This document shows positions 9,085 through 62,835 of a DNA stretch of 64,000 bases, in pieces; the first letter of the stretch is position 1, and each line of letters begins with the position of its first letter. Made by a program: the position numbers and the translations under genes. The DNA is from Patescibacteria group bacterium (GTDB taxonomy: Bacteria > Patescibacteriota > Minisyncoccia > Phycocordibacterales > UBA1550). Location: the NCBI GenBank assembly GCA_038062675.1, contig JBBTWP010000001.1, forward strand, positions 186,059 to 250,058, in the 5' to 3' direction. The notes beneath the pieces are model-generated. The model worked only from the letters and a program-made list of their open reading frames with translations. It did no database searches and was not told the origin of the DNA.

Positions 9085-9558
9085 CTAAATAGTTTCAGGT
9101 GATTCGATCTTTACAATCTTATAGAGCGACCGCCTAGCTTTTCCATGCGACCATGACGCTTTTTTCTCTACCGTCTCAAGAAGGACCCAATTTCTTGACG
9201 CTACTTTGTATCTAAAAAAGAGTATTTTGCCTAGAGGGCTGCTTAAAACCTGTAAATTTAAGTAGACACCGTGGTAGTAAGTAATTTCTTGAACAACAAA
9301 CGTGCCTTCTTGAGCAGTCCCGCTGCAATGAATTTGCAATACGTCATTTTTATTAATCAAGGAGCTGTAGCTAATTGCCTTATTTCCACATGCATTATGT
9401 CTGCCTAAGTAATAATCACTCAACTGATTCTTGTTACTGAGTAATTGAATGTTCTTTGTTCCACAGTGCGGACAGGTAAGTGCTCCCTTTTGGGGGCCTA
9501 CTAATTGTTTACCGCTCTTTTTAAAGAAAACAACGGTCATCTTTTTTTCAATAGTCAC
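9085..9558 (-). CDS. hypothetical protein (CxxC-containing)
   Basis: ORF followed by a strong terminator. No family recognised. Confidence 0.45.
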   Translation of the reverse strand: MTIEKKMTVVFFKKSGKQLVGPQKGALTCPHCGTKNIQLLSNKNQLSDYYLGRHNACGNKAISYSSLINKNDVLQIHCSGTAQEGTFVVQEITYYHGVYLNLQVLSSPLGKILFFRYKVASRNWVLLETVEKKASWSHGKARRSLYKIVKIESPETI

Positions 9559-28293: not shown

Positions 28294-28315
28294 AGGATTT
28301 TATGCTTTTAGCACA

Positions 28316-29479
28316 TTATCGATTTCCTTTTGCTCGATTGTGTGTTTTACAGAGCATCTGACAGTTCTTTACTGAGGTAGCGCCACCCTTGCTCCACGCT
28401 GATACATGGTCGGCATCCATTTCGGCTAGCTTCCAAACTTTACCCTTGTTGGCATCATGTCCAAGAGTACAAAGAGGACAGTTCGATTCATTTTTAGCTT
28501 TAGCTTTGTCTGTTTGCGTTGCGTAAACTGACTTTTTTGTTGCTTCGTCAAAAACTCTCACCTCTAGCAGTTTTGTATCGGCTGAACCGCCGAGAATGTA
28601 CTCAAAAATCCCTTTACGGTTTTTGATATACGGATCACCGTAGAGCTTATGTAACTCTCTTGATACCTTAGCGGGGTCGTAAGCTTTCTTGTGGTACTCC
28701 TCATACAGTCGTCCCCACTCAAGACCTTTCATCTCGCTCTCCACATCTTTGAATATACTAGAAACCCACTCTATAACACTATTAAAATATGTTTTTAATT
28801 CAGTGATATTTTTGTTACTACGATGACTACTCATGTAATCGTTGATATTACCTTTGCTCACCCAATCAAGTGCTCGCTCCAGAAACTCCTGCCTGTTTGC
28901 GCTACCTGAGACATACGCACTCCATTTTTGAATATTGGCATTCTGGCTGTTACTAAATTCTTCTTTACCAAGTGTTACAAATGGACCATAATAAACAGCG
29001 TTCAATAACTCTTGATGACTCAAAGGAACACCAGAGATGTTAATCGTCTTAAACCACTCTATTATTTCACTTTCTTTACCTTCACATTCGTAAATGAGTA
29101 GCTTCGATTCCAAAATCTTAATCTGCTTATCTTTAGCAATACCACTAAAATATTGCTCCATACCATTTTCATCCTTAACAGCAAATTTGTCGGTCACGTA
29201 GCGTCCAATACTGGTAATGCGTTGTTGTCCGTCCAAAACTTCAAGGACATCGTCACTGACTTTATTAAAATATATCAATCCAAGTGGGTACCCCTTTAGG
29301 ATTGATTCGATAACGGCAACATCCTTTTTACCATCTGCATAAATATAGTTACGCTGATACTCTGGCTGAATAGTTAATTTGCCTGACAAGCCAAACAACC
29401 CCTTGCCTTCAAGCTCGTTGTAAACAAATCCTTCACAGATATCTTTGACGGTGATGCTAGTTTTTAAAATTGTTTTCAT
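28316..29479 (-). CDS. DUF262 (ParB-like/GmrS) domain protein fused to C-terminal HNH nuclease
   Basis: DUF262 hallmark [11 protein letters not shown]-terminal [13 protein letters not shown]...[15 protein letters not shown]. Confidence 0.7.
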
Positions 29480-29492
29480 ATTATTTTTTTGT

Positions 29493-30098
29493 TTAACTTA
29501 CTATGTCTGGCAAGTCTCGCAATTTCTTGCCTTTATATTTAAAATAATCCGCACCTGCATAAGCTCCACTCTCGTTCAGTTCGCCTCGTTGCTCATAGAG
29601 TTTATACGCGAGCGGAGATAATTTCCAAACCTGACCACCATATTCCACTTCTCGTTCACCGACAATTTTCGCTGTTATTTTTTCATCATCCTTAAAAACA
29701 ATCTCTTCCCCATTTTTCAAACCTTTTTTATAAAAGCTGAACAGTCTGCCTTGTCTTCTCACTTTCGATACTTCATCAAACTCTTTTTCCTGGTCAATGT
29801 TTTCAGGGTAAATAACTTTACCTTTAAATGAAAGTAGGAGCTCCCGAATCAATTCTTGGTCTAGGGCGAATAGTTCACTCTCACCAACTCGGTGTTTATT
29901 AAAAATATCGTGTAAGAGAGTTTCTTTCTCGACATAATCCTCAAGTTCAATTGCAAAAAATCTCTTTAACCCAGCAACATTGTAATAACCATTCGCTTCA
30001 AGGTTTCGCATCCTCTCCTGGTAATTATTTGTGCCTGTTTGTCCGATTTTTATCAAACCTGAAACAGCTGTTGTCGTTATATAAATAATTCCCTTCAT
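29493..30098 (-). CDS. GIY-YIG superfamily (T5orf172-like) nuclease
   Basis: [21 protein letters not shown] (GIY...YIG-like) followed by RMRNLE...N. Stop abuts the upstream methyltransferase gene. Start taken at internal MKGIIY. Confidence 0.6.
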
Positions 30099-30099
30099 A

Positions 30100-31272
30100 T
30101 TATTTTTTATTATGCCTGATAAAAATTCTTTTATACGCCATCTTTGCGACGTTATTTTCATAATAACCAGCTGTTGGGTTACCTTCCTTATATGCGCCTG
30201 TACCACCTGCTTTATAGTAATCGGCAACAAATTCTTTTGTTAAACCTGGTGTTTTCTTAAATTTATCATCAACAATACCATTATCACTTGTTCCTAAAAT
30301 ACTAAATTGTTCCGGAGAATATTTGTCGAGAAAACTAATCGGTACCCCTATAACACCTTTATAATCGCTCGGAATGGCATCAGTAAATGGTACTTCTATA
30401 GCGTCATAATTGTCATAGCGGTTATAGGATTCTTTGCCTTTGACTTCTTTATGTTTGCTGTACTTCAAATTGTCCTCCATAGTCATGAGTGGTAATGGCT
30501 TGTGACGTCGCCCGTGGTCAAGATTGGTAAACCAACAAGAATTACCGAGTCTTGTATAATCACCCACATATCCGAGTCGAGCAGCTTTCTGCTTGTCTTT
30601 TTCGTCAACTTCTGTACCTTTTGGAACGGCAAAAACCATATCACTACCATTTCCAGTCGCCCCCAACCAAGCTTTGTTTTCCTTAATTAGAGGAAAAACT
30701 TCCTTGTAGGTAATCGCGTTCATGTTGCCGATAATCACAAACTGTTTATTGGCTTCCACGATCCACGCCAAAAATTCACGGAACAGCGAGAACGGCGGAT
30801 TGGTAATGATGATGTCTGCCTCATCGCGGAGTTTTTTAATCTCATCACTCTTAAAGTCCCCGTCACCTTTTAAATACCGCCACTCAAGGTCTTCGACATC
30901 TGTCTTGCCGTCACCAGTCTTGTCGTGAGTTAGGGTAAAAATTTTTCCGTTTTTGGAAGTTTTGTTTTTATTGTATTGCGAGTCGTTTGCTTCAAAGAGG
31001 GTCGGCTGATAGTCACTTTTATAGCTCTTGCTATCTGAAGCATAACTGGTACTAATAAGTTTTTTTAAACCGAGTTTCTGAAAGTTTTGAGCTAAAAATT
31101 TTGTAAAGTTGCTCCACTCTGGGTCATCGCAAGGCAATAAAATTATTTTACCCCGAAATGCGTCCGGGTTATATTCCAAATACGCTTCAATCTCTTTTTG
31201 AATATCGTTATACTGCGTATAGAACTCGTCATTTTTTGCCTTTTTTGCGTTTGTGAGATTACTGTTTGCCAT
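30100..31272 (-). CDS. N6-adenine DNA methyltransferase (EcoRI-methylase-like)
   Basis: NDEFYTQ N-terminal motif and IITNPPFS (NPPF motif IV). Confidence 0.75.
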   Translation of the reverse strand: MANSNLTNAKKAKNDEFYTQYNDIQKEIEAYLEYNPDAFRGKIILLPCDDPEWSNFTKFLAQNFQKLGLKKLISTSYASDSKSYKSDYQPTLFEANDSQYNKNKTSKNGKIFTLTHDKTGDGKTDVEDLEWRYLKGDGDFKSDEIKKLRDEADIIITNPPFSLFREFLAWIVEANKQFVIIGNMNAITYKEVFPLIKENKAWLGATGNGSDMVFAVPKGTEVDEKDKQKAARLGYVGDYTRLGNSCWFTNLDHGRRHKPLPLMTMEDNLKYSKHKEVKGKESYNRYDNYDAIEVPFTDAIPSDYKGVIGVPISFLDKYSPEQFSILGTSDNGIVDDKFKKTPGLTKEFVADYYKAGGTGAYKEGNPTAGYYENNVAKMAYKRIFIRHNKK

Positions 31273-31280
31273 AATATTTT

Positions 31281-31310
31281 AATCGAACCTAGATATACAG
31301 CTTCAAAGGG
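31281..31310 (-). repeat. partial copy 1 of tRNA-Gln 3' portion
   Basis: aatcgaacctagatatacagcttcaaaggg, identical to tRNA positions. Its following 28 nt resemble the flank of copy 2. Confidence 0.7.
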
Positions 31311-31338
31311 CAACCTATTGTCGGTTTATGTTCTTGGC

Positions 31339-31380
31339 TGGGAGACTAGGAATCGAACCTAGATATACAGCTTCAAAGGG
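31339..31380 (-). repeat. partial copy 2 of tRNA-Gln 3' 42 nt (att-like direct repeat)
   Basis: tgggagactaggaatcgaacctagatatacagcttcaaaggg, identical to the 3' 42 nt of the adjacent tRNA. Its 5' continuation cannot form acceptor or anticodon stems. Confidence 0.75.
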
Positions 31381-31408
31381 CGGCCTATTGGTGGTTCATG
31401 AAGAGTGC

Positions 31409-31478
31409 TGGGAGACTAGGAATCGAACCTAGATATACAGCTTCAAAGGCTGCTGTCCTACCGTTAGACGATCTCCCA
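31409..31478 (-). tRNA. tRNA-Gln (anticodon UUG)
   Basis: Manual fold of the 70-nt gene: acceptor UGGGAGA/UCUCCCA with a U1-A72 pair, D-stem GUCU/GGAC, anticodon stem GCAGC/GCUGU, loop CUUUGAA, T-arm CUAGG-UUCGAUU-CCUAG. CCA not encoded. Confidence 0.75.
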
Positions 31479-47759: not shown

Positions 47760-47911
47760 GTAAGTGTATTGATTGTGGGATAAGTACTAAAGGGGGTGAA
47801 GTGTGCCTACACGACATAATTCCTCAATTGAAAGTATATTTTCGGATCGTTGAAGACATCAGTCAAGGTATAAAATATTACATCACAGTATGTACACTGC
47901 TACGTTCCGCG

Positions 47912-48877
47912 CTAGTCAAACGATATTCCGAACGCATTGGCAATGCGTTCTAGTTCGCGTTCGGGATAATGCGCACTCCACACTTTCCGAATCACAGCGG
48001 TGTCCGCACACAGTCGATCATAAATCATCAGTGCTTCAGGTTGATAAAGATAAGCACTTCGGTTGGGCGTGCCCTCGGCCTCCTCGTAAACTTCGCGAAT
48101 CACGTCTTCGTGTTCAGCGTAAAAATGATCAAGATGGGACACGATCTGTCGCGACTCTTTTTCATACAGCGGCATAAGTAAATGGATCAACGCAAGTGAT
48201 ATTTCTGGATCACCGCGTCGCGTCGTGAGTTTGTAGTAATGCCGCTCTAGCGACTTCAGCAAATCAAGTTCTGGGGTTGTAGGCGTTTCCATATTTAGCC
48301 TAGTAAATTCACTATCGGCTACCTCGACTACTCCTGCAAGAAGGAAAATTCGACGCTTTATCGAATTCGGCAACGGATTAAGGGTATCGTCATTCTTGTA
48401 GTAGGTGTCATGTGACATCTCAGACCACAAATGTTGGGCAAGGGTTCGCACTTGAAGTTCAGCTTGAAACTTTTGCGGCGGATAAGTGGCCACCAGCGGG
48501 TCGTCCGCACACAGTTTCACATCGACATGTACACTCAGATATCCGACTTGATCCAGTTTCAGCGTATCAGCCTTCTGCTCTGGCTGCCCGCACTTAAACG
48601 ACTTTTCGGCTAACGCCAAAACCGCGTCGACTTCATTCTTGTACCGAAGAATCACACGAATGCCGGACTTATCGCTCACCGATTCATAATTATGACTCGG
48701 CTTCTTGATCAACTTGCGAATGAAACCATCCATTTCCTTCGCACGGCTGGTTACATCAGCCCAGATGCCCGCTTGACGCAATTCAGTACGTAGCCGCTTT
48801 TCAAGTTCTTTGCCGAATTGCTCATACTTGGGCCTCTCTTGAAGCCAGCGCTTCCGGGCGGTTTCCAAATCGGTCAT
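47912..48877 (-). CDS. RelA/SpoT-domain nucleotidyltransferase (toxSAS/CapRel-like) with C-terminal extension
   Basis: GIRVILRYKNEVD, VGYLSVHVDV and ELQVRTLAQHLWSEMSHDTYYK match the RelA_SpoT synthetase fold. No HD or TGS domains. Overlaps the upstream gene by 4 nt (ATGA). Confidence 0.7.
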   Translation of the reverse strand: MTDLETARKRWLQERPKYEQFGKELEKRLRTELRQAGIWADVTSRAKEMDGFIRKLIKKPSHNYESVSDKSGIRVILRYKNEVDAVLALAEKSFKCGQPEQKADTLKLDQVGYLSVHVDVKLCADDPLVATYPPQKFQAELQVRTLAQHLWSEMSHDTYYKNDDTLNPLPNSIKRRIFLLAGVVEVADSEFTRLNMETPTTPELDLLKSLERHYYKLTTRRGDPEISLALIHLLMPLYEKESRQIVSHLDHFYAEHEDVIREVYEEAEGTPNRSAYLYQPEALMIYDRLCADTAVIRKVWSAHYPERELERIANAFGISFD

Positions 48878-49905
48878 TTATGCACAATGTTTTGTAGTTG
48901 ATCATGCACAACTATTTGGTCAGTTTCGATGTCGACCAGATGTTCCTCGTCAACAGGCACAGTTACTGTCACGCCCTTAATCGTGTAGAGCGACTTTCGA
49001 CGAAGCTTGCTTTGAATATCTGAGGTATCTTTCTCGAACCCTTGCAGCGAAACTCGGTTATCGGCAAGGAAGTCCGAGTACAGCTTTTGGTAACTGTCCG
49101 GGATGTAATCCTCTATAAATTTCTTGGGTATAATTTTTGTCTTCTTGGATTTCAGCTCCGACAGGAGATGCTCGTACACATCATTTTTCTCCACCGGATC
49201 AGTAATGTAACTGTTAACGAAATTAACAGTCGCATCAAACCACTTCTGCGTTGCGATACGCGGTTCTTCTGTGGCACGGCATCCCAAAAACCGCATCCAG
49301 AATCGTGCTACATCCGTGCTTCTGGTTACTGAGCGCTGGCTGTCACACGCCGCAGCGCGGAACGTGTTCTCGCCAGTTCTAATAAACAGCGCGGATTTAA
49401 AAAGACGCGTGCCATCGGTAAACACAAGGTTGTCGAGCACGGACATCTCAAACCTCCGTCTACCATCAATTGTGCGCAGCTCAAGGTCGGCACCTTGCTC
49501 GCGCTCCAACTTTAAAATAGCTAGGCTGGCACGGCCGGCGCTGGCGATATCAATGACACATAACAATCCTGGAGACATCTGACCGCCCTGTTGGTCAAAC
49601 AAGTATTGCGCCAGCCGTTGTGACATATCAACGAAGTGCTTGATCGAATGAGACTTAGCTGTGAACTTCCCCACTTCATCGGGAACCGGCGAGCTGGTCT
49701 CAGGAAGAAATTCAGTCTCGTAGGCAGATTTAGACCCTAGCGCCCGCGTTAGTCGATCCTTCAACATACCAGCCCGCGACGAATCAATCTCCGTTTCGGC
49801 ATCGGCCAGGGTTGGTATGTTCGTACCGCCCTTAGAATTGTTTGGTACGTCATGGAAAATGATGTGTCTGATTTTTAGTCTGGCGAGATCGTCGGATGTA
49901 ATCAT
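48874..49905 (-). CDS. NA37 (YejK/NdpA-like) nucleoid-associated-protein family member
   Basis: N-terminal LKIRHIIFHDV and mid-protein FWMRFLGCRA resemble E. coli YejK (INQIALHQLIK, FFMDFLGASE). About 340 aa, as in YejK. Confidence 0.6.
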   Translation of the reverse strand: MITSDDLARLKIRHIIFHDVPNNSKGGTNIPTLADAETEIDSSRAGMLKDRLTRALGSKSAYETEFLPETSSPVPDEVGKFTAKSHSIKHFVDMSQRLAQYLFDQQGGQMSPGLLCVIDIASAGRASLAILKLEREQGADLELRTIDGRRRFEMSVLDNLVFTDGTRLFKSALFIRTGENTFRAAACDSQRSVTRSTDVARFWMRFLGCRATEEPRIATQKWFDATVNFVNSYITDPVEKNDVYEHLLSELKSKKTKIIPKKFIEDYIPDSYQKLYSDFLADNRVSLQGFEKDTSDIQSKLRRKSLYTIKGVTVTVPVDEEHLVDIETDQIVVHDQLQNIVHK

Positions 49906-50180: not shown

Positions 50181-50747
50181 TCACATCAATCCTCGCTCCG
50201 CCATACTCACCACCGCGCTCCCCGTCACCACAAAGTGATCGAGCACGCTCACTTCGACGAGAGCAAGTGCATCCTTGAGCCTCATCGTAAGTGCCGTGTC
50301 TGCGGCACTTGGTTCTGCAACCCCTGAAGGATGGTTATGGGCAAAGATGACACTGGCGGCGTTAAGCGCAAGTGCCCGCTTTACCACTTCGCGCGGATGG
50401 ACGGATGCACCCGCGAGGGTGCCGCGAAAGAGTTCCTCGGCAAGAATGAGATGATGTTGCGTAGTAAGGAAAAGAACAACAAAGACCTCATGTTCTCGTC
50501 CGTGGAGCAATACCTTGAGATACTCCTTAACGGTGTACGGTGAAGAAAAAACGTCTTCACCGTAAAGCTTTTCTTCAAGCGAGAGACGGACGAGTTCCCG
50601 GGCCACCGCAAGTTTCGGTACGTAGTTTTTGCTTCCTTCCTCTGCATAAAGAAGGGTGGTGAGTGAGCCTTGGTACAGCTTCTGTGCTTTCTTCGAACCT
50701 ACAAGAAGGGACAGAAGGTCAAGGTGTGATAGGTGGTGAAATGTCAT
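50181..50747 (-). CDS. radC: RadC-like JAB domain protein
   Basis: [18 protein letters not shown] motif. SD aaggag 7 nt upstream of the chosen ATG. Confidence 0.8.
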
Positions 50748-50810
50748 ATCGAGCTCCTTTATGTAAAGAACAAACCCGATATACATAATTATCTTTATAT
50801 AGCCCGAAAA

Positions 50811-50880
50811 CACGACGCGAGAATGTGCCGCGTGGACACGCTGCTAATCACTCAAACAGGCGGGTCATAATTCATGAAAA
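50811..50880. repeat. direct repeat R1 (about 70 nt)
   Basis: cacgacgcgagaatgtgccgcgtggacacgctgctaatcactcaaacaggcgggtcataattcatgaa. Related to R2 and R3. Confidence 0.7.
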
Positions 50881-51017
50881 TAAGGTGTGACAATGGTGTT
50901 CAATCTGAAAAGGCACAGGAAAAGGCACCTGCAAATTATCAATAAAGAATCGGGGACTATAATTTTGCTCTGTCATAAAATGCTCAATGCTACTAGCGTA
51001 ATGGGGAAGATTTCATC

Positions 51018-52322
51018 GTGGGATATTTTCGGCAACTTACCGAAGCAGCAGATTGGCTAGTCACTCATCAAAATTTGGACGGAGGGTGGGGACTTAGCCC
51101 AAAGCAAGCTTCGTCAGTGGTAAATACGGCTGAATCAATATTTATTCTCGTAGAGGCAAACCACCTATGCGGTACTCATTACTCTGACCAGATTTTGAAG
51201 GGGTTTGAATTCATTTGGCGGCAACTACTAGAACAACTTGAAAAATATCCAAGAACTCGCTATGTCCAATTTGCGCTATGGAATTTCCCAAACCCAATAG
51301 TTGATTATCCAGGGGAGGTAAAGCGATACACTGAATGGCTTTTGGGCGCGCAAAATGATGATGGTGGCTGGGGGCACCACTCCAAGGACGGACAGTCCTC
51401 ACTCTTCCCGTCGGTACTTTCTTTGCTGGTATTGAATCGCCTCGGCACACTCACGAAAGAGAGTCGTGCAAAGGGCATTTCTTGGCTGCTTTCCAAAAGG
51501 GACGGGAAGGGGCTATGGGGATTTGTCTCTGGTCAACAAAGCAAAGTTGCAACCGCACAAGCTGTTCATGCTCTAGTAAATAACAAATATGAGATTGACG
51601 ATAGTGCAGTAAAAAATCTGATCGACTTTTTAAGTTCAGACTTGGATTGGGGTGTGGAAATTGAAAATGTGCCAGGGACAAAATGGGAGCATTCAAAAGT
51701 ACTGTGGATCGTGCCAAGCCTTCTTCTGCTTGGAACTGAGCCATATGAACATGTCATAGCCGACGCTGTTCGTAAAGTTAACACTCTACGGTATGAGAAT
51801 GGATGGAAAGAGCCCGATGGAGCAGAGACAATCCGCGGTCAGTTCTGGATTACAAGTATGTACGCCAAACTACATAAGGCTTTCGATCCAGCCATCGTGA
51901 CTTACAGAATTGAGTCAGCCTTATCAATCCAAAAACAAAAATACCTAGAGCCGGAGTATGTTCACCTCTTGCCCTCATCCAAATATTTTAGATTTGTGTT
52001 TCATTCACGCTGGTATCGCATAGCGACATATTTCTGTTTTTTCAGCAGCTTTTGTATACTGTTCCTTGTACCAACAATTGATTTGACCATTAAGAGATCG
52101 GCAATCGTTAGTGCATTATCAGTCCTAACCGTGAGCTTGTTTGCATCCTCGCTCATTCTTATAAAGAAACGAAAATCTTTTTTCCCTCCTTGGATAAGCA
52201 AAGGAATATTTCCGATTATTATAGGGATTATTATAGTCTTCGAGATTGTGAGTGCTGCGTTAGGAATAAGCGTACAGGATATTTATAAAATATTGTTAAC
52301 ACCCGCAATAACTTCCAAATAA
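51018..52322 (+). CDS. prenyltransferase/squalene-cyclase-repeat (alpha-toroid) protein with C-terminal TM helices
   Basis: Repeated (D/N)GGWG motifs: HQNLDGGWGLS, AQNDDGGWGHH, KRDGKGLWGF. Three or four C-terminal TM segments. Confidence 0.6.
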   Translation: MGYFRQLTEAADWLVTHQNLDGGWGLSPKQASSVVNTAESIFILVEANHLCGTHYSDQILKGFEFIWRQLLEQLEKYPRTRYVQFALWNFPNPIVDYPGEVKRYTEWLLGAQNDDGGWGHHSKDGQSSLFPSVLSLLVLNRLGTLTKESRAKGISWLLSKRDGKGLWGFVSGQQSKVATAQAVHALVNNKYEIDDSAVKNLIDFLSSDLDWGVEIENVPGTKWEHSKVLWIVPSLLLLGTEPYEHVIADAVRKVNTLRYENGWKEPDGAETIRGQFWITSMYAKLHKAFDPAIVTYRIESALSIQKQKYLEPEYVHLLPSSKYFRFVFHSRWYRIATYFCFFSSFCILFLVPTIDLTIKRSAIVSALSVLTVSLFASSLILIKKRKSFFPPWISKGIFPIIIGIIIVFEIVSAALGISVQDIYKILLTPAITSK

Positions 52323-52324
52323 TT

Positions 52325-52735
52325 ATGCAGTACATGTACAAAATAGGACTTGCACACATAAGAAACAACAGATTACTTTTGTGCCGTCCATTCGCATTTG
52401 ACCCCCTGATTCTTCCAGGCGGTTTGAAAAAAACAGGGGAATCACCGGTTGAAAATCTGATGCGGCAGATCGTCGAAGAGCTTGGCGGAGGGGCTCATTT
52501 GGAAACCAGTTCTCTCCGTTACTTGGGTAATTTCTCAGATTTTGCGGCTGGCAAAACAGAAAGGATTGTAGAGATTGAACTATATAGCGGGGAGTTGTCA
52601 GGAACTCTTGTAGCTTCTTCTGAGATACAGGAACTCAAGTGGTTCTCACCAACAGATGATTGGGAAACGCTTTCCCCCATAATTAAAAACAAGATACTTC
52701 CGTTCCTCATACAGAATGGTTCTTTATTGAAATAA
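52325..52735 (+). CDS. NUDIX hydrolase
   Basis: Nudix box PGGLKKTGESPVENLMRQIVEELGG. Separated from the upstream gene by 2 nt. Confidence 0.65.
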   Translation: MQYMYKIGLAHIRNNRLLLCRPFAFDPLILPGGLKKTGESPVENLMRQIVEELGGGAHLETSSLRYLGNFSDFAAGKTERIVEIELYSGELSGTLVASSEIQELKWFSPTDDWETLSPIIKNKILPFLIQNGSLLK

Positions 52736-52755
52736 TACGAGTTGCTCGCGTCAAA

Positions 52756-52790
52756 CACGACGTGAGAATGCGCCATGTGGACACACTGCA
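52756..52790. repeat. direct repeat R2 (34-nt core)
   Basis: cacgacgtgagaatgcgccatgtggacacactgc. Confidence 0.65.
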
Positions 52791-52794
52791 TTGT

Positions 52795-52830
52795 TCCCGA
52801 AAAACGCGAACACAAAAAACCCGGCCTTCC
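52795..52830. terminator. bidirectional terminator
   Basis: aaaaaacccggccttccgaccgggttct hairpin with an A-run and a T-run on opposite sides, between convergent genes. Confidence 0.6.
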
Positions 52831-52849
52831 GACCGGGTTCTACAACTTC

Positions 52850-53767
52850 CTATGCGCACTGATCCGCACTACTCTTTTCCAACGCAACCTCCTTCAGATA
52901 TCGACAAGCGACCTGAGCTGCACTTGATGCGGTAAAGATTGCCGTCTTCTCTTGGTGGAGCACCGTAAGCCAGCTTCTCACGTAGAACGCATGGTCACGC
53001 CGTGGATGCAGATAGATGCCAAGATCAGCACAAAGAAATGCCGCGCCGAGCTCTGCCACCAACTCTTCCATGGCATAGGCAAAGGTACCGAAGCGACCCG
53101 AAAGATCACGGTTCAAGCGCTTGGGGTGTCCCGACCAATGCACATGTTCATGGAGCAGCACCGAGTAGAAGGACTCAGTTGCCGAGCTTGTTTCCGTGCC
53201 CACGAATTGCCGACGCTCCGGCATACTGATACGGTCAAAAGCTCTGCTGTAAGCCGCGATGTCACCGCCATAGAGCACTTCCGCACCAAGCGACGAGATG
53301 AACGTATCTACGGTCTCCAATTGCTGTGTGCGGTCTTCTGGCAGTTCCTCTGCCTTCTGCCAGCCGTCTACTTGTTCCGCATTGAATACGGAGGAGCTGC
53401 GCATAATGGGAGGAAGCTTGGGGGTGTTGTCATTATGTGGCTCGTCTTCACCTTCTGCTTCCCTCTGTTTGAAGTAGATGATGGGTGAGGCTTTTTCTCC
53501 CCGCCTGACCTGAGCGCCGAGTTCGCTCCACTGACGGTAGGTGGCAAAGTAGGGTGATGTGTAACCGCGCAGTTGGCACGTAACCCATAATGCGAGGGTA
53601 TTAACCCCGTGGTAATGGTTGTGGGTGAGTGCATTCCGTGGCATGCCTCCGGCACGTTGGTGCCACGGCATAACATACTCTTCCCCGCTCGCTTCAATGG
53701 CCTTGATGATTTCATCGGTTATGCGGGCATGTACATCTCCCCGCTCAAAAGAACGTTCCGCTTTCAT
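52850..53767 (-). CDS. ardC: ArdC-like antirestriction protein (ssDNA-binding N-domain + zincin)
   Basis: N-terminal ITDEIIKAIEASGEEYVMPWH. C-terminal metalloprotease HEHVH motif. Confidence 0.7.
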   Translation of the reverse strand: MKAERSFERGDVHARITDEIIKAIEASGEEYVMPWHQRAGGMPRNALTHNHYHGVNTLALWVTCQLRGYTSPYFATYRQWSELGAQVRRGEKASPIIYFKQREAEGEDEPHNDNTPKLPPIMRSSSVFNAEQVDGWQKAEELPEDRTQQLETVDTFISSLGAEVLYGGDIAAYSRAFDRISMPERRQFVGTETSSATESFYSVLLHEHVHWSGHPKRLNRDLSGRFGTFAYAMEELVAELGAAFLCADLGIYLHPRRDHAFYVRSWLTVLHQEKTAIFTASSAAQVACRYLKEVALEKSSADQCA

Positions 53768-53873
53768 ATCTGTCTCCTTGTCACGCCAGGAACACCGGGG
53801 ATTCGGTGCTCCAAAGTGACAACGAGAGAAATGCGGTTTCCTACTTCATCATCGCCCAACGGGTGAGCGCCGG

Positions 53874-53940
53874 CACGACGTGGGAATGTGCCGCGTGGAC
53901 ACGCTACTATTTGTTCAATCAGGCAGGTCGTAATTCATGA
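53874..53940. repeat. direct repeat R3 (about 70 nt)
   Basis: cacgacgtgggaatgtgccgcgtggacacgctactatttgttcaatcaggcaggtcgtaattcatgaa. Shares extended similarity with R1. Confidence 0.7.
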
Positions 53941-54019
53941 AGTGCAATCTTTCCGCACGACGCGAAAAGTGTCTGTAAGGACATGGCTTCCGTGCCGTGT
54001 ATTCCCCTGTGTACTAGGT

Positions 54020-55216
54020 ATGCTTTCTTTCATGAAGAAGCATGTACCCATCTCGTATTTCGGAGTAACCAACGGACGGAAGAAGCTGCGGTTCGGTATC
54101 AAAGAGCGCGACCGGCTTTTTCACCTGTACGCCATTGGCAAGACCGGTACCGGAAAATCGACACTTCTGGAAACGCTGGCGCGTCAGGATATACGGCACG
54201 GGCACGGTCTGTGTGTCATTGACCCCCACGGTGATTTGGCAGAGCGGCTGGTAGCGTATGCGATGGGTGTGCGCCGAGGTGACCTCATCTACCTTGATGC
54301 TGCGGACATCACTCAGCCGTACGGATACAACCCACTACGGCGTGTGCGAAAAGACAAAGTACCACTTGCAGTGTCAGGCCTTCTTGAGGCATTCAAGAAG
54401 CTGTTTGACGATGCGTGGGGAGTGCGTATGGAGCACATATTTCGGAACACGCTCTATGCCTTGATCGAGTATGGCAACGCGACGCTCCCCGATGTGCTCC
54501 GCATGGTATCTGATGCCAAATTCCAGAGGGACGTGCTCAAACACGTGGAGAATGTACAGGTGCGGAAATTCTGGGAAGAGGAATTTCCGCACTACAATCC
54601 GCGCTACCGGCAGGAGATGATCTCCCCCATTCAGAACAAAATCGGTGCCTTCTTGGCCGACCCCCGACTCCATCGAATATTCACGGAACCACCGGTTGAC
54701 CTCCACTTCCGCCACATCATGGATACGGGAAAAATCCTCATCGTTAATCTCGCCAAAGGGCGGTTGGGGGACGACAGTGCGAATTTGTTGGGAGCCTTAC
54801 TCGTTACCACGCTCAGTCTTGCTGGGTGGTCCCGGAGTGAGATTCCCGAACGAGAACGTCGCAACTTTTTTGTGTATCTCGATGAGTTTCAAACCTTCAC
54901 CACGCTTTCCGTGACGAATGCGGTTTCTGAACTGCGGAAGTACGCTCTGGGGTTCGTGCTTGCCAACCAACACCTCCACCAGCTCACCGAGGACGTGCGG
55001 CATGCGGTGCTCGGGAATGTCGGTACCATCATCACCTTCCGTGTGGGGCCGGAGGATGCACGCATTCTTGCGCGTGAATTTAGTCCGGTGTTTTCCCCTG
55101 AAGACTTGTCGAGCCTTCCCAACCACGACATCTACGTGAAGCTCATGATCGACGGTGCGCCGGGGAGGCCGTTCAGTGCGACAACGCTCCATCCCCAAAA
55201 CCAAGAAGCATCTTGA
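54020..55216 (+). CDS. TraD/TrwB/HerA-like P-loop ATPase (FtsK-HerA superfamily)
   Basis: Walker A AIGKTGTGKST, IDPHGDL and FVYLDEFQTF (Walker B). The ORF-track start at 53888 is a GTG inside repeat R3, so the start is taken at ATG 54020. Confidence 0.6.
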   Translation: MLSFMKKHVPISYFGVTNGRKKLRFGIKERDRLFHLYAIGKTGTGKSTLLETLARQDIRHGHGLCVIDPHGDLAERLVAYAMGVRRGDLIYLDAADITQPYGYNPLRRVRKDKVPLAVSGLLEAFKKLFDDAWGVRMEHIFRNTLYALIEYGNATLPDVLRMVSDAKFQRDVLKHVENVQVRKFWEEEFPHYNPRYRQEMISPIQNKIGAFLADPRLHRIFTEPPVDLHFRHIMDTGKILIVNLAKGRLGDDSANLLGALLVTTLSLAGWSRSEIPERERRNFFVYLDEFQTFTTLSVTNAVSELRKYALGFVLANQHLHQLTEDVRHAVLGNVGTIITFRVGPEDARILAREFSPVFSPEDLSSLPNHDIYVKLMIDGAPGRPFSATTLHPQNQEAS

Positions 55217-55277
55217 GGGATATGGCATGAGGGAGTCTAATGCAAAGCTTCGCAAACGATCATGAGGGGAGAACATC

Positions 55278-55784
55278 ATGGGAAAGGTCGTACCGGAAAC
55301 CATCCTTTCGCATTGGAACACTATGGTCCAGGGGATGAAGCATTCGTCGAAGAGCTTCTATGATTCTGTTGAGCAAATCTTGGGTGCCCACCATCTTGAA
55401 CATATCAAGATTGAGCGTGTGAATCTTTTCGAGGGCAGTATTCTGTCCGCGAAACGCGAGTATCTGCAAATAAGGCGAGAAGCGTTGGTGTTTCATATCT
55501 GTGCCGCACCGTTCGGCAACGGCTTCTTTGTTTCGTGGTGGCTGGGAGAACGGGAAAAAGGATTCTTTGCACTCTTGGCGCGTATTCCCGTTATTGGTTT
55601 TTTCCTCCGCTCTGTACTGAAGCCTCTTACCTACTACAAATTTGATACCACAGGCATGTTTCAGTCGGTAACCCACGCGGCGGTGCTCGAAACGCTGGAT
55701 GCCGTGGTGAATGCGCAGGGCATACGGGCACTGTCCGACCTTGACCGGAAGCCGATCATGCGTGATTTCTTCGGGCGTACGTAG
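55278..55784 (+). CDS. hypothetical protein
   Basis: 168-aa ORF between the two ATPase genes. Confidence 0.4.
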   Translation: MGKVVPETILSHWNTMVQGMKHSSKSFYDSVEQILGAHHLEHIKIERVNLFEGSILSAKREYLQIRREALVFHICAAPFGNGFFVSWWLGEREKGFFALLARIPVIGFFLRSVLKPLTYYKFDTTGMFQSVTHAAVLETLDAVVNAQGIRALSDLDRKPIMRDFFGRT

Positions 55785-55801
55785 CGCTTCGTGAGTCTCT
55801 C

Positions 55802-58800
55802 GTGACACGCCCCCTTGCAGAGCGCATTACCGAAAGCTTCTACGCATGGGAATTGCGGGGACGTGGGTGGTCCCTTTCCGATTACCCGGTATCCCTTGAG
55901 CCGCCCTACCGACCAATCTTTTTGCTTCCTTCGCAAGGTAATGACGGCGTGTGTGACGACGGGAAACGGCCAACATTTCTTTCCTCGCTCGCGTTGGTGA
56001 CAAAGAATATTTGGAAGAGCGGCAATCATCCCTTTCCAGCTCTTCCCGCTCCACCCTTCGAGGAAATGCTGCCATTCCCCGCTCCCCCGTCCAGTGAGCG
56101 TGCAACACTTACGATACGGGTACCGGCGGATTTCGCGGCACAGGTCGAGGTTGCACAAAAGCTTCTGCTTACACTCTCGACCGCGCTTCAACCTCTTTGC
56201 TTTGAAATTGTAGGTCGGTACAAATCTGTGGTGTTTCAAATTACCTGCGCCGCATCTGACACGACCCACGTCATTGAAACCATCCGTGGATATGTCCCCG
56301 ATGCGGTCGTTACCGAAGAATCCGATATTTTGGTGGACGCGTGGGATATCAGAGAAGAGGGCGCCGTTATTGACTTCGGCCTGTCCCACGAATTCTTTCT
56401 GCCGCTTCAAGCCGTCAATTCCTTCACCATTGATCCATACATTCCCCTCGTTGGAGCGCTCGGGCAGATGGGTGCAGACGAGTTGGGCTGCGTTCAAATA
56501 CTCTTCGCGCGGGTCAGGAACCCATGGGCAGAAAGTGCCAGAGATGCGGTGAATGACGGCAAAGGCGGGTGCATTTTTGCCGACGCGCCAGAATTTGTGA
56601 AGCTCACGCGCGAGAAAACGGAAACGCCGCTCTTTGCGGTAGTGATTCGTATTGCAGCACAAGGAATGGCACCAGAACGGGCATGGAGTATTGCGCGTTC
56701 TCTCGGAAGCTTCTTTCTTCAATTCGCACGCTCGGGCAGCAATGAACTCATACCGCTCGACAATGACGCATACCCCGACGAACTGCATACGCAAGCGCTC
56801 CTTGCACGCGAGAGCTACCGCACGGGAATGATTCTTTCCCTTCCAGAACTCTCCGGGTTGGTGCACTTCCCTGACGCATCCGTTCTCCATGAAGCGCTTC
56901 ACCGTGAACGTAAATCCACCAAAGCACTTCCCGAGGTAGCGCTCGGTCATCATTTGATTCTGGGAGAAAATATACACCGGGGTATTTGCACGCCGGCGAC
57001 ACTGGGGACTAGTGACCGGCTCCAACATGTACATGTGATTGGTGCTTCGGGTACCGGGAAATCTACGCTTCTCCTCAACCTCATCGAGCAGGATATTGCA
57101 AAGGGTGAAGGTGTCGCTGTCTTTGACCCCCATGGAGACTTGATCGAAGAAATTCTTGCGCGTGTTCCCGAGGAACGTACTCACGACGTGGTGGTATTTG
57201 ATCCCGGTGATGAAGCGTGGCCCATGGGATTCAATGTACTGTCTGCAACCAGTGAAATTGAAAAGAACCTCATTGCATCCGACATGGTGGGCATCTTCAA
57301 ACGCTTAGCGACAAGCTGGGGCGACACTATGAGCGCAGTGTTGGGGAATGCGGTGCTTGCCATGCTCGAAGGTAAGCAGGGCGGAACGCTTCTCGATCTG
57401 CGGCGTTTTCTCCTTGATGACATGTTTCGGAAGCGGTTTCTCGCCGAGATTGCTGATGAGGAAATCCGTTTCTTCTGGCACAAGGAATACCCGCTCATCG
57501 GTTCCCGCTCCATTGGGCCGATCCTCACCAGATTGAACGCATTCCTTCGCGCCAAGCTCATCCGTAACATTGTGGGGCAGAAGGGTGGCACGCTCGATAT
57601 TTCAAAAATCATGAACGTGCGCAAGGTGCTCTTGGTTAAACTTTCTCATGGCATCATCGGTGAAGAGAACGCGCACCTTCTGGGAAGCTTACTCGTGAGC
57701 AAATTCCACCAGTCGGCGCTCCTCCGACAACAGGTAGCTAAAGACTCGCGCAGTCCGTATTTTCTTTACCTTGATGAATTTCAGCACTTCGTCACGCCTT
57801 CAATGTCATCCCTCCTTACCGACTCACGGAAATATGCATTGGGGCTTACCTTGGCGCATCAGACGCTTGCACAGCTTGATGATTCTCCTGTGAAGAGTGC
57901 GGTCCTTGGCAATGCGCATACGCGCATCGTGTTTCGGGTTGATTACGCTGATGTGGCGACCCTTGCACGCGGGTTTGCTTCCTTTGATGCAGAGGATGTG
58001 CAGAACCTGTCGCGGGGGGAGGCGGTGGTCCGAATGGGGCGTGCGGAGAACGACTTTAATCTGCACACGTTCCCCGCGACGCATATTGAACAAGATGTGG
58101 CACGAGCACGGAGCGCATCCGTTATTGCACATTCACGAGAGATGTTTGCGACACCGCGTGCCGTACTCGAAGAAGGGTTCCGTACAGCACAGGAGCCGCA
58201 GGAAGCGGCGGTGGTTGGTGCGGTAACAGTTGCAGAAGAAAAACGAGAGGCGACGCAAAAGGAAAAAGCACTTGCCACCCGTAAACGCGAAATCACTCCT
58301 CCTGTTCTACCACCATCTCCACCAACTCTCCGGGCACACCCCATTCCCCCACCGGAACCGTCACCCCTTGGCCGGGGCGGGCAGGAACATAAGTACCTTC
58401 AACATCTGGTGAAGCGATTAGGTGAGGAGCGGGGGTTTCGCGCAATCATTGAAGAACAGGTGCCGAATGGCCAGGTTGACGTGGTGCTCCGCAAAGAATC
58501 GTTGGTGATTGCTTGTGAAATTTCAATCACCACGAACGTCGATCACGAAGTCGAGAATATCCAAAAATGTCTGGCTTCAGGGTTTACTAAAATTCTCTTC
58601 ATTACGCCCGATGCAAAGCGGCGCGAAAAAGTCGGAAAAAAGCTGAAGGAGGTTCCGAATGGAACACTTGTTGACCTATTGGGACCGGAAGACATTTTGC
58701 CTACTTTGGATCGGCTTGATACCATGACGCCGACCCAAACAACAGTGCGGGGTTACAAGGTGAAAGTGACACGGCAAACGCTCTCCCCCGCAGATGTTGC

Positions 58801-58864
58801 AGAGCGGCGGTCGGTGGTGGCGCAGGTTATTGCGCGGTCGCTTTCAAGAGTGAAGAAGGGGTGA
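55802..58864 (+). CDS. large multidomain protein: unknown N-domain, TraD/HerA-like ATPase, Pro-rich linker, C-terminal nuclease-like domain
   Basis: Second Walker A VIGASGTGKST, FDPHGDL, FLYLDEFQHF. C-terminal VDVVLRKE...HEVENIQKC resembles a restriction-endonuclease-like fold. Confidence 0.6.
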   Translation: MTRPLAERITESFYAWELRGRGWSLSDYPVSLEPPYRPIFLLPSQGNDGVCDDGKRPTFLSSLALVTKNIWKSGNHPFPALPAPPFEEMLPFPAPPSSERATLTIRVPADFAAQVEVAQKLLLTLSTALQPLCFEIVGRYKSVVFQITCAASDTTHVIETIRGYVPDAVVTEESDILVDAWDIREEGAVIDFGLSHEFFLPLQAVNSFTIDPYIPLVGALGQMGADELGCVQILFARVRNPWAESARDAVNDGKGGCIFADAPEFVKLTREKTETPLFAVVIRIAAQGMAPERAWSIARSLGSFFLQFARSGSNELIPLDNDAYPDELHTQALLARESYRTGMILSLPELSGLVHFPDASVLHEALHRERKSTKALPEVALGHHLILGENIHRGICTPATLGTSDRLQHVHVIGASGTGKSTLLLNLIEQDIAKGEGVAVFDPHGDLIEEILARVPEERTHDVVVFDPGDEAWPMGFNVLSATSEIEKNLIASDMVGIFKRLATSWGDTMSAVLGNAVLAMLEGKQGGTLLDLRRFLLDDMFRKRFLAEIADEEIRFFWHKEYPLIGSRSIGPILTRLNAFLRAKLIRNIVGQKGGTLDISKIMNVRKVLLVKLSHGIIGEENAHLLGSLLVSKFHQSALLRQQVAKDSRSPYFLYLDEFQHFVTPSMSSLLTDSRKYALGLTLAHQTLAQLDDSPVKSAVLGNAHTRIVFRVDYADVATLARGFASFDAEDVQNLSRGEAVVRMGRAENDFNLHTFPATHIEQDVARARSASVIAHSREMFATPRAVLEEGFRTAQEPQEAAVVGAVTVAEEKREATQKEKALATRKREITPPVLPPSPPTLRAHPIPPPEPSPLGRGGQEHKYLQHLVKRLGEERGFRAIIEEQVPNGQVDVVLRKESLVIACEISITTNVDHEVENIQKCLASGFTKILFITPDAKRREKVGKKLKEVPNGTLVDLLGPEDILPTLDRLDTMTPTQTTVRGYKVKVTRQTLSPADVAERRSVVAQVIARSLSRVKKG

Positions 58865-60783: not shown

Positions 60784-62763
60784 CTAGAAAATATCTACTC
60801 CCAAAAACCCATTCATCAATTCCCGCCACCGCCCCCTCGGTACCGTCTCACCACTCTCCCAAACCCGCCACGTCCCCTCGTCGACACCAAGGTGCCGTGC
60901 TGCTTCCTTGAGGGACCAGCCCATCGCGCGCCGTTTGGCGAGCAGGCGTTCAGGAAGGCTCTCCGGCTTCGGAAAGGGGTCGTAGCCTAAGAAGCGGAAG
61001 ATGGCGGGCATGGACGCAATCGGTGGTTCAGTTTTCGTCTTCTCCCAATTTAGTACCGTGGCAGAACTGACCCCGAGGAGCTTCCCGGCTTCTCGTTGGT
61101 TGAGCTTCATTTCCTTACGTCGCTTGTGAATATGCTCGCCCAAAGTTTGGGGCATAATTTCGGTTTCCTTTGGTTTCAATGCTTTAAGGCACACGCGGAC
61201 GTATGGCAAGAAGGCAACGCGTCTATGAGGTTTCGTTGCCATTCCGCCACCGTCTAAGAGGGTAGGGGGAGTGTCCGGCGTTTCAGGGGTGAAGGGGGTC
61301 TCGGTGGAAGTCACAGAAGCAGGTGGTGCATAGAAGAGGTGGATTTCTACTTCGCCGACGTGAACAATGATCCGCTCAGTAATGGCCTCCACGATTTGGC
61401 GCTTTTCTTCGTTAGGAAGCGTTGGCCAACGGGTATAGAGATCACGGGCGCTGGTGACGATTTCCTCCTGCGAGAGGTGGGAGATTTTGAGGACATCCAG
61501 TTCCGCTTGTACCTGAGGAAGTTCCTCTTCGAGTTGCCGTTGCCGCAAGGCCATTGGGTGGTATTTTGCTCCGAAGCCTGCCTTGTCAATTGCGCTTGAT
61601 TGGTAGAGGTCATAGAGCTTGTCTACTTCGGCAGCAAGCTTCTTTTGTTCCTTGTGGAGCACCGTGAGGAGTTCTTCTTTTTCATGAATGGCGGCGTGTG
61701 CCTTGCTCAAGTGCGCGGCGATTTCATGGGGTGAAAAGAAGAAGTTTTTGATCTGTTCGTGGAATACCCCCTCCAAGTCAACAACCGGGATTTTGTTGCG
61801 GCAGGCGTAACAGACGTATTTCGGAGTGTTGGACGGCACATACATTTTTTGGCCACAGCCGCAGTGGGTAAGCCCAGCAAAGAGGTGGACGGTTTGCCTC
61901 GCTAGGCGCTTCCCTTTCGCCCTTTGACCGTCCAAGATGGCATTGCATTCGTTCCAGAGTTCTTCGGGGACGATGGCTTCTACTTCAAGGAGCACCCATT
62001 CACTTTCAGGCTTCCGTTCCCATGTCTTTTTGTTGTTCTTTGTTTGGGTGTAGTTTGCGCGACGGATGCCCTTGGCGGTTGGGTCGCGCAAAAGGCGGTC
62101 TACCGTCGTGTCGGAAAACAGTGAGCCGTTCCGGGTGCGGTAGCCACGTTCATTGAGGAGCCGTGCCACGGTTTTCTTGCGGCGGTATTCCCGAAAGAGT
62201 TCGTACATGAGCTTTCGTACCGGTGCTTCCTTGAGGTCAGGAATAAGCTTTCGATCTTTCCACTGATAGCCGAAAGGTGCTTGGCCACCGAGCGGCTTCC
62301 CCATCTTGGCGCGGATAGGGACCGATGCGGCAACCCGCTGCGCGATTTCCTCACGTTCCCACTGCGCCATGGCGGCAATCATCGTATAGAAGAGGCGGCC
62401 TGCTGGGGTTGAGGTGTCGATGGATTCCCCGAGCGATATGAGGTCAGCATTGTACGTGCGGAACTCTTCCGCGAATTCGAGGAGTTCTCGGGTGTTACGG
62501 GCAAGGCGAGCGAGCTTCGAAAAGATGATGCCGGTGATGTGGCCCTTCTTGATGTCACCCAGCATGCGCTTGGCTTCGGCGGTTTCTTTGACAGTCTTTC
62601 CCGAAATGGCGTCAAGACGGTACACCTCGATCACGTCCCAGCCTTTCGCTTCGGCGTAGTGGCGAGCGCGGCGTTCGTGGTGCTCGGGTGATTCCCCTCT
62701 TACTTGATCTTCGGTCGAGACACGAATCCAAATGCCGACCCGTTTGGAGCTTTCAGCGTGCAT
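60784..62763 (-). CDS. large serine recombinase fused to C-terminal tandem XRE-type HTH domains
   Basis: Resolvase N-domain VGIWIRVSTEDQ with catalytic Ser. Recombinase and zinc-ribbon regions. C-terminal LNQREAGKLLGVSSATVLNWEK and SLKEAARHLGVDEGTWRVWE HTH motifs. SD gggagga upstream of ATG 62763. Confidence 0.8.
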   Translation of the reverse strand: MHAESSKRVGIWIRVSTEDQVRGESPEHHERRARHYAEAKGWDVIEVYRLDAISGKTVKETAEAKRMLGDIKKGHITGIIFSKLARLARNTRELLEFAEEFRTYNADLISLGESIDTSTPAGRLFYTMIAAMAQWEREEIAQRVAASVPIRAKMGKPLGGQAPFGYQWKDRKLIPDLKEAPVRKLMYELFREYRRKKTVARLLNERGYRTRNGSLFSDTTVDRLLRDPTAKGIRRANYTQTKNNKKTWERKPESEWVLLEVEAIVPEELWNECNAILDGQRAKGKRLARQTVHLFAGLTHCGCGQKMYVPSNTPKYVCYACRNKIPVVDLEGVFHEQIKNFFFSPHEIAAHLSKAHAAIHEKEELLTVLHKEQKKLAAEVDKLYDLYQSSAIDKAGFGAKYHPMALRQRQLEEELPQVQAELDVLKISHLSQEEIVTSARDLYTRWPTLPNEEKRQIVEAITERIIVHVGEVEIHLFYAPPASVTSTETPFTPETPDTPPTLLDGGGMATKPHRRVAFLPYVRVCLKALKPKETEIMPQTLGEHIHKRRKEMKLNQREAGKLLGVSSATVLNWEKTKTEPPIASMPAIFRFLGYDPFPKPESLPERLLAKRRAMGWSLKEAARHLGVDEGTWRVWESGETVPRGRWRELMNGFLGVDIF

Positions 62764-62835
62764 ACGTCCTCCCTTTGGTAGGGTGAGCAGGCGCACATTT
62801 TACGACAGAGGGTGAGAATTGTGGTGATGGTTTAG

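Follow-up and report, generated by a model that had tools for sequence, protein, structure and literature searches.

Promoter-early stem-loop (PeSL) elements of T4-type phages have been described as 'mobile regulatory cassettes', in which promoter-early and stem-loop motifs flank the variable genes of hyperplastic regions. When close relatives are compared, the repeats form the end points of insertions, deletions and replacements, and homologous recombination between the repeats, including the formation of small circles, has been proposed (PMC2839356, PMC4122927). Here we describe four short sequence copies in a mobile island of a Patescibacteria group bacterium, for which PeSL would be the closest described analogue. 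The island lies in a 64-kb stretch of DNA (assembly GCA_038062675.1, contig JBBTWP010000001.1, positions 186,059 to 250,058), which is called the window below. Its copies, designated R1, R2, R3 and P4, are found among genes for RadC, a prenyltransferase/squalene-cyclase-repeat protein (cyclase-like protein) with a NUDIX protein, ArdC and two ATPases. With moderate confidence, we regard them as paralogous copies of the control region of widespread serine-recombinase mobile islands, which may act as promoter-operator modules and double as junctions between gene modules.

As in PeSL, short repeated promoter parts are combined with a dyad, four copies within 3.2 kb flank three modules, the predicted promoters have a fixed -10-like geometry, and indels between the window and its close relatives end in copies. 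In contrast to PeSL, the copies belong to a chromosomal serine-recombinase island instead of a lytic phage, and there is no sequence similarity between the two. The dyad also behaves as a duplex operator would, not as a terminator stem-loop, the copies head leftward units, and the case for recombination at the repeats draws on few events.

A sequence-only reading of the window had reported three same-orientation copies of a degenerate 34-nt core, and an exact-pattern search bears this out. Within the 64 kb there are exactly three matches to the core, at 50811-50844 (R1), 52756-52789 (R2) and 53874-53907 (R3), all on the plus strand; 100 dinucleotide shuffles gave no match, and none is expected by chance. 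R1 and R3 agree at 31 of the 34 positions, R1 and R2 at 29 and R2 and R3 at 28, and mutual identity is 84-86% when the core is extended to 37 nt (50808-50844, 52753-52789 and 53871-53907). The additional downstream sequence noted for R1 and R3 is likewise present, giving 68 nt in common with 85% identity (50811-50878 and 53874-53941). This extension, B' (50845-50878 and the homologous 53908-53941, both plus strand), is common to R1 and R3 only; at R1 it includes ..CAGGCGGGTCATAATTCATGAA and leads towards the cyclase-like gene. The left outer arm CACGACG of R1 occupies 50811-50817 and is followed by an inner palindrome, GTGCC-GCGTG-GACAC, at 50825-50839; R3 has the same arm and palindrome.

The gene context is also as first described. 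R1 lies between the divergent genes for RadC (minus strand, start 50747) and the cyclase-like protein (plus strand, start 51018), and R3 between those for ArdC (minus strand, start 53767) and the first ATPase (plus strand, start 54032), so that the copies bracket the cyclase-like/NUDIX pair and ArdC and precede the ATPases. Read on the minus strand, R1 presents a CGTCGTG box and putative operator upstream of RadC, and R3 stands in the same way upstream of ArdC. R2 lies between convergent gene ends, with the NUDIX stop codon at 52735 on one side and an intrinsic terminator with an 11-bp stem at 52816-52841 on the other. This terminator had been called bidirectional; it has a T-run on the minus strand only and is thus mainly the terminator of ArdC. 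The left inner arm of R2 reads GCGCC: the best-conserved arm position, at which 28 of 29 aligned loci keep T, has changed from T to C.

A fourth copy, P4, had been overlooked. It is diverged, it is the only complete copy, and it lies at 53956-53999 on the plus strand with the sequence CACGACGCG-AAAA-GTGTC-TGTAAG-GACAT-..-CCGTGCCGTG. The module to which it belongs (53956-54034) reads CACGACGCGAAAAGTGTC-TGTAAG-GACAT..CCGTGCCGTG..TATGCT-TTCTTTC-ATG and stands directly upstream of ATPase 1. It is preceded by a 48-49-nt 'empty' spacer, a 49-nt remnant made up of the B' extension of R3 and positions 53942-53955. A profile of R1-R3 run over the window gave no further significant copy. Weak resemblances to the core within the ATPase 2 coding sequence (57160-57192, minus strand; E about 0.02-0.06) and downstream of a RelA-like gene (47795-47825, GAAGTGTGCC-TACAC-GACAT) are unconvincing and probably due to chance.

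The nature of the copies became visible in a comparison set of 80 related loci fetched from metagenomes and 16 more obtained via exact-protein look-ups (designated by L numbers). RadC and ATPase 1 are direct divergent neighbours in most relatives, ~140-200 bp apart and with a single dyad between them. This conserved site of ~46 bp, CACGACG-(c)GAGAAY-GTGYC-N5-GRCAC-RcatCa-CGTCGTG, stands just upstream of ATPase 1 and is followed by ~20 nt, TATGCT, 6 nt and the ATG. P4 is its positional ortholog in the window. R1-R3 correspond to its left two-thirds, with the inner palindrome but only the left one of the outer arms; of 34 positions, 30 are identical between R3 and the single site of L090, and the conserved RadC leader of the relatives recurs to the left of R1. 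The B' extension found no match beyond the core in the 80 related loci.

In an alignment of 29 loci, 80% of cells in the outer arms and 82% in the inner arms are paired, whereas sliding the partner columns lowers the figure to 28-47%. Changes occur on both sides of the arms, as at pair 25-42 (CG 13, UA 6, UG 3, AU 1), and a T-A pair of the palindrome is kept in 28 of the 29 loci. The N5 spacer is free to vary while the GTGYC and GRCAC arms are conserved, and G.T and A.C mismatches are about equally frequent (15 versus 19 in the outer arms, 13 versus 11 in the inner arms), giving no strand bias. Arms conserved in sequence, a free 5-nt spacer and the lack of strand bias are together the signature of a dimer-binding operator, a protein site in duplex DNA, although cruciform or hairpin use is conceivable. 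RNAalifold found no consensus structure in the 29-locus alignment. As single-stranded DNA (ssDNA), the site of L019 is predicted to form a strong hairpin relative to shuffles (z -4.3, -17.9 kcal/mol), and values are weaker for P4 (z -1.3) and L090 (z -0.8); R1, R3 and R2 (z -0.8, +0.9 and +0.1) fold no better than shuffles, and neither do their RNA folds on both strands. A local hairpin in R1-R3, ACGYG..CRYGT, with apparent compensation in R2, was discarded as a coincidence, being missing from the canonical sites and folding no better than shuffles. Rfam gave no match to the repeat region at the gathering threshold, nor at E<=1.

The copies hold a fixed position relative to predicted promoters. 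Among canonical sites, 21 of 25 loci have 41-42 nt between the palindrome centre and TATGCT. This -10-like box is exact in most loci, and in 23 of the 32 loci having such a box the ATG follows it after 6 nt; in the window it lies at 54019-54024 (plus strand), with a 7-nt gap to the ATG of ATPase 1 at 54032. Such spacing is what would be expected if transcription started at the A of the ATPase 1 ATG, which points to a leaderless mRNA. Paralogous copies at L016:1590 (TATATA) and L017:1057 (TAGATT) keep the same 42-nt spacing. On the leftward side, our reading of the sequence suggests a -10-like box for RadC, TATGTA, at 50782-50787 (minus strand), 23 nt after CGTCGTG; the corresponding box of the relatives, TATGAG, has a spacing from CGTCGTG equal to that in the window. 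For ArdC the candidate is TGATGA/GATGAT at 53846-53851 (minus strand), 22 nt after CGTCGTG, and the identical box occurs at identical spacing in L010, L011 and L093. Overall, the outer arms CACGACG and CGTCGTG are found 20-23 nt upstream of TATG-type -10 boxes. A sigma-54 promoter formed by TGGACAC..GCTGC of the core was ruled out on inspection of the sequence, the GG-to-GC spacing being 3 nt too short.

The RadC leader has a further conserved feature of its own, an inverted repeat over the Shine-Dalgarno sequence and start codon (window 50745-50790, minus strand; also in the RadC leaders of L013-L034, L090 and L092). It reads TGTCGGA..N19..TCCGACATG in relatives and TATCGGG..CTCGATATG in the window, with compensatory changes, and is probably a leader hairpin that controls RadC translation or mRNA stability.

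Module presence and absence follow the copies. Among the closest relatives, whose ATPase 1 is 77-82% identical to that of the window, copy number follows module number. One copy and no cargo, in the order RadC, one site, ATPase 1, is found in L090, L091, L092, L013, L097-L099 and L100. Two copies are found in L010, L011, L093 and L096, in the order RadC, copy, ArdC terminator, ArdC, full site, ATPase 1. The window has four: RadC, R1, B', cyclase-like/NUDIX, R2, ArdC terminator, ArdC, R3, B', P4, ATPase 1. The comparison of bracketed cassettes with related genomes that the sequence-only reading had proposed thus yields empty, ArdC-only and ArdC plus cyclase-like/NUDIX states, and the view of the copies as cassette junctions stands insofar as they sit at module boundaries and modules come and go at core edges. 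The ArdC terminator next to R2 is the one that adjoins the RadC-proximal copy in L010, L011, L093 and L096; therefore, the cyclase-like/NUDIX segment (1,945 bp, R1 to R2) lies exactly between two cores. Homology breaks at the core edges: the right edge lies 3-5 nt after GRCAC (window, L093, L095, L037), and at R2 the left one precedes CACGACG by 3 nt. This pattern comes from only two to three independent events near the window, plus L037, L095 and L016. The spacers of R1 (GCGTG), R2 (ATGTG) and R3 (GCGTG) resemble each other and that of L090, and are unlike that of the positional ortholog in L093 (TTCTT), a likeness that suggests duplication or conversion at insertion. L037 has the RadC and ArdC units in a permuted order relative to L010.

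Extra copies in relatives are also close to promoters. Just upstream of gene starts, mostly leftward ones, stand 11 of the 12 found; R2 of the window is the sole copy found between convergent gene ends in the window and the relatives. L016 adds three copies to its canonical site: one (1590) precedes a 163-aa gene, one (3857) a leftward unit of two genes and one (5047) a trypsin-like gene that also points leftward. The latter two (3857-3960 and 5047-5150) share ~100 nt downstream of the palindrome, CCTTRACTGGGGCTCRTCGACGA..GAACCCG.TAC.TC.ATCGTGATCCGC, which parallels the R1/R3 extension. L037 has a copy at 9202 upstream of ArdC, and L095 has one at 3564 upstream of a RadC paralog. Three RadC paralogs stand in tandem at 2255-4208 of L095, the two nearest ATPase 1 each being preceded by a dyad-core copy. 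Copies at ~3835 in L090 and at 4480 in L094 lie in the divergent promoter region of the serine recombinase, and further ones are found in L015, L017, L020 and L038. The cyclase-like/NUDIX pair is a conserved two-gene module that recurs at 10001-11724 in L094 and 10001-11726 in L095, without flanking cores in either; in L095, and probably in L094, it occupies another position in an island of the same family. The cyclase-like protein is membrane-tailed and belongs to a rare family with about 15 homologs, and the pair is a candidate defence or anti-defence system.

These observations can be drawn together in a simple scheme. The basic control region would be one ~46-bp dyad-symmetric double-stranded site between divergent RadC and ATPase 1. 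Its inner palindrome, (GARAAY)GTGYC-N5-GRCAC(RTTYTC), would be the operator for an island-encoded dimeric regulator, and its outer arms CACGACG and CGTCGTG would occupy the -35 positions of both divergent promoters. The left outer arm and inner palindrome retained by R1-R3 would meet the full needs of a leftward promoter-operator. R1 would then control RadC and the genes behind it, R3 would control ArdC and P4 the ATPase operon, each leftward cargo unit being headed by one copy. R2 would be an orphan relic, left when the cyclase-like/NUDIX module inserted beside the RadC-proximal copy. Because the copies are the only sequence common to the modules, they end up at module junctions, where they probably supply homology for the gain, loss and reordering of modules by recombination between them. 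Since a leftward transcription unit runs from operator to terminator, arrays would show such boundaries without a dedicated site-specific system; that none is required is also suggested by the L016 units that extend ~100 nt past the core and by the bare cyclase-like/NUDIX pairs of L094 and L095. A shared regulator-binding site had been offered only as a fallback, and the promoter-proximal copies at fixed spacing make this putative function the better-supported one. The objection that a terminator context speaks against an operator concerns R2, the apparently decaying orphan, and none of the other copies.

The most plausible operator-binding protein, as a candidate suggested by sequence, is a tandem helix-turn-helix (HTH) module of the XRE type. 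In the window it forms two C-terminal domains (aa 553-662) of the large serine recombinase (60784-62796, minus strand), and this fusion had already been named as a possible binder. The family conserves the tandem HTH in many of its elements and in two forms, as a fusion to the recombinase (window, L013, L022, L098 and L099) and as a standalone protein such as the one of 158 aa in L090 (16801-17277), and loci holding both the tandem HTH and the putative operator have near-identical arms. The arrangement is similar to multi-operator regulons of prophages and integrative and conjugative elements, typically under XRE/cI-type regulators: a palindrome with conserved arms and free spacer recurs at several promoters of one element and at a fixed distance to -10 boxes, including those of the recombinase promoter in L090 and L094, and the element encodes an XRE-type HTH protein. 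It differs in that the palindrome centre falls at about -54 with the outer arms over -35, unusual for a simple repressor, and in that the HTH pair is fused to a recombinase.

Several findings weigh against the promoter-operator interpretation. Both the -35 equivalents (CGTCGTG) and the -10 boxes (TATGAG, GATGAT) are poor sigma-70 matches, and with matches this weak, promoter function is something that we infer. The sole good sigma-70-like promoter that a promoter scan gave near R1 lies at 50936-50963, outside the repeat, and the 42-nt geometry is missing from the right halves (B') of R1 and R3. Compensatory changes in both arms of the divergent loci L024, L033 and L036 would fit a hairpin too; the L033-type arm sequence is AAATTACC, and L024 has another arm type. 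Finally, several events share one and the same junction position at the core edges, as site-specific recombination would also produce.

This last point leads to the alternative in which the cores are dedicated site-specific recombination sites. Circular one-core cassettes would integrate into a resident core, possibly through the HTH-tethered serine recombinase, and build up an integron-like array of RadC, cyclase-like/NUDIX, ArdC, remnant and ATPase. Direct copies do bound every inserted module, homology ends at the core edges, there is one copy more than there are modules, RadC and ArdC are permuted between L037 and L010, and the recombinase has extra DNA-binding domains; the unconstrained spacers of R1-R3, alike and not like that of the L093 ortholog, are as expected from duplication at insertion. 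Integrons, with their attI and attC sites and the integrase IntI, offer a natural likeness, since there too co-oriented and imperfectly palindromic repeats separate gene modules next to a recombinase-bearing platform. However, the island's sole recombinase is the large serine recombinase, and no tyrosine integrase (Phage_integrase), of the IntI type or otherwise, was found among the scanned open reading frames (ORFs), which comprise the island ORFs and 10 chromosomal ORFs and are part of those in the window. R1-R3 do not fold, and the attC-type structure is missing. The copies stand at the 5' end of transcription units, whereas integron repeats stand at the 3' end of promoterless ORFs, and module orientation is mixed, with cyclase-like/NUDIX opposite to RadC and ArdC. 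Selection on complete leftward transcription units would yield equal boundaries, the cyclase-like/NUDIX pair occurs without flanking cores in L094 and L095, and the duplicated units of L016 (3857 and 5047) run ~100 nt past the core, showing that the repeat is not a discrete site. Serine recombinases use a symmetric central dinucleotide, and the odd 5-nt spacer does not have one. The assembled contigs of the source population show one arrangement: exact ArdC and RadC protein look-ups returned it at 12 places from 17 contigs, although assemblies are weak at revealing rare variants. The integron-like mechanism put forward by the sequence-only reading is therefore unsupported, given the absence of a tyrosine integrase among the scanned ORFs and of hairpins, the core-free pair in two elements and the promoter-proximal copies, and we consider dedicated sites unlikely. 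Its fuller form, a cassette platform on which the HTH-tethered recombinase captures, excises and reorders modules and the 37-bp element is operator and recombination site at once, seems to us very unlikely; if true, it would amount to a functional analogue of the integron, made of unrelated parts and present in many bacterial phyla.

The remaining alternatives deny the copies either their duplex form or their function. The dyad could be a folded single-strand element, that is, an ssDNA entry hairpin (similar to Frpo, or to oriT or clt for the T4CP/FtsK-like ATPases; T4CP, type IV coupling protein) or an RNA leader, of which R1-R3 are copies. The nested inverted repeats with strong hairpins in some relatives such as L019, the compensatory changes in both arms at pair 25-42 and neighbours of the anti-restriction or leading-region type (ArdC, RadC) alongside T4CP-like ATPases are in its favour, and a dyad upstream of anti-restriction-type genes in a transferable element recalls Frpo of plasmid leading regions. 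The element here is far shorter, however, and three of the four copies do not have one arm. Frpo holds both -35 and -10 boxes, for which the 23-bp stem found here is too short. The missing G.T/A.C strand bias, alifold consensus and Rfam match also count against folding, as do R1-R3, which without the 3' arm fold like shuffles, and the weak folds of P4 and L090; if transcription starts at the ATG, the site is upstream and untranscribed. We therefore rate a folded element as highly improbable. Alternatively, R1-R3 could be neutral scars of duplications or insertions, with P4 alone functional. R2 serves no gene and is mutated at a conserved arm position, and only P4 has both outer arms. Yet R1 and R3 keep an intact GTGYC-N5-GRCAC palindrome, their placement relative to the RadC and ArdC leaders and their -10-like spacing are those of the relatives' sites, and RadC and ArdC otherwise have no conserved upstream element, which makes neutral scars quite unlikely. 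A dispersed repeat of the repetitive extragenic palindrome or miniature inverted-repeat transposable element type does not fit, there being just four copies, all within 3.2 kb of the island.

The family backbone consists of RadC, ATPase 1, a small protein, ATPase 2 and the large serine recombinase. In the window, the RadC-like JAB gene (50181-50747, minus strand) is the leftward backbone gene, and the rightward backbone operon (54032-58864, plus strand) encodes the T4CP/HerA-like ATPase 1 (54032-55216), a 168-aa protein (55278-55784) and ATPase 2 (55802-58864). PADLOC, NCBIfam and PHROGs gave only generic T4CP/HerA-type matches to the backbone ATPases. Between the two backbone parts lie the cargo modules. 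One (51018-52735, plus strand) consists of the cyclase-like gene (51018-52322) and NUDIX (52325-52735); the other is ArdC (52850-53767, minus strand), an ArdcN domain with a zincin peptidase, which is common to L010, L011, L093 and L096. Downstream of RadC, at 47912-49905 (minus strand), a gene for a small RelA/SpoT-like nucleotide pyrophosphokinase (PADLOC PDC-S33 match) overlaps one for a 37-kDa nucleoid-associated protein, and transcription from the R1 side probably covers both. Outside the island, positions 27430-31478 of the window hold another small defence cluster, in which a tRNA gene (31408-31478, minus strand) neighbours genes for an EcoRI-type adenine methylase (30100-31272) and for a GmrSD/HNH restriction protein (28316-29479).

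ATPase 1 (394 aa) has >7,900 homologs, and homologs with 68-82% identity occur in metagenome-assembled genomes labelled Gammaproteobacteria, Betaproteobacteria, Gallionellaceae, Acidobacteria, Actinobacteria, Acidimicrobiales, Pacebacteria, Patescibacteria and others. The window locus with identical repeats was also found in several Hainich groundwater assemblies. A search of 185,579 species genomes with the exact core pattern gave only two chance-level matches, both within coding sequence, and JGI metagenomes and viral contigs had none, which shows that the literal core sequence is private to the window's element; a plasmid collection held no similar DNA. A literature search for a description of the island family found none matching. 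The comM islands (PMC12595487) belong to a different family, which uses a tyrosine integrase. A truncated Mg-chelatase (comM-like) gene borders the island in L090 and L092 and may be an integration target. Cargo in relatives (flanks; L090, L092, L093, L096 and L016) is rich in defence- or toxin-type genes, including an AHH nuclease with Imm11, a Bil/Bub-type ubiquitin-like system (E1/E2/JAB-like), Peptidase_U49, a PLD nuclease, an AAA_13 ATPase, a trypsin-like protease and a DNA methylase with Vsr.

The more notable by-product of this work is the island family itself and its conserved control region of the leaderless type. In an apparently undescribed family of islands, this putative control architecture combines a dyad operator, divergent promoters and a leaderless-type start, and it provides a concrete candidate pair of operator and regulator. 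The predicted leaderless promoter could work in very different hosts, which would suit an element active in many phyla. Anti-restriction genes and defence-like cargo occupy the variable region of these islands. If each cargo unit is indeed headed by one island-wide operator that is also a point of exchange, this would explain how newly acquired genes come to be co-regulated, and how cargo can be shuffled without a dedicated cassette integrase.

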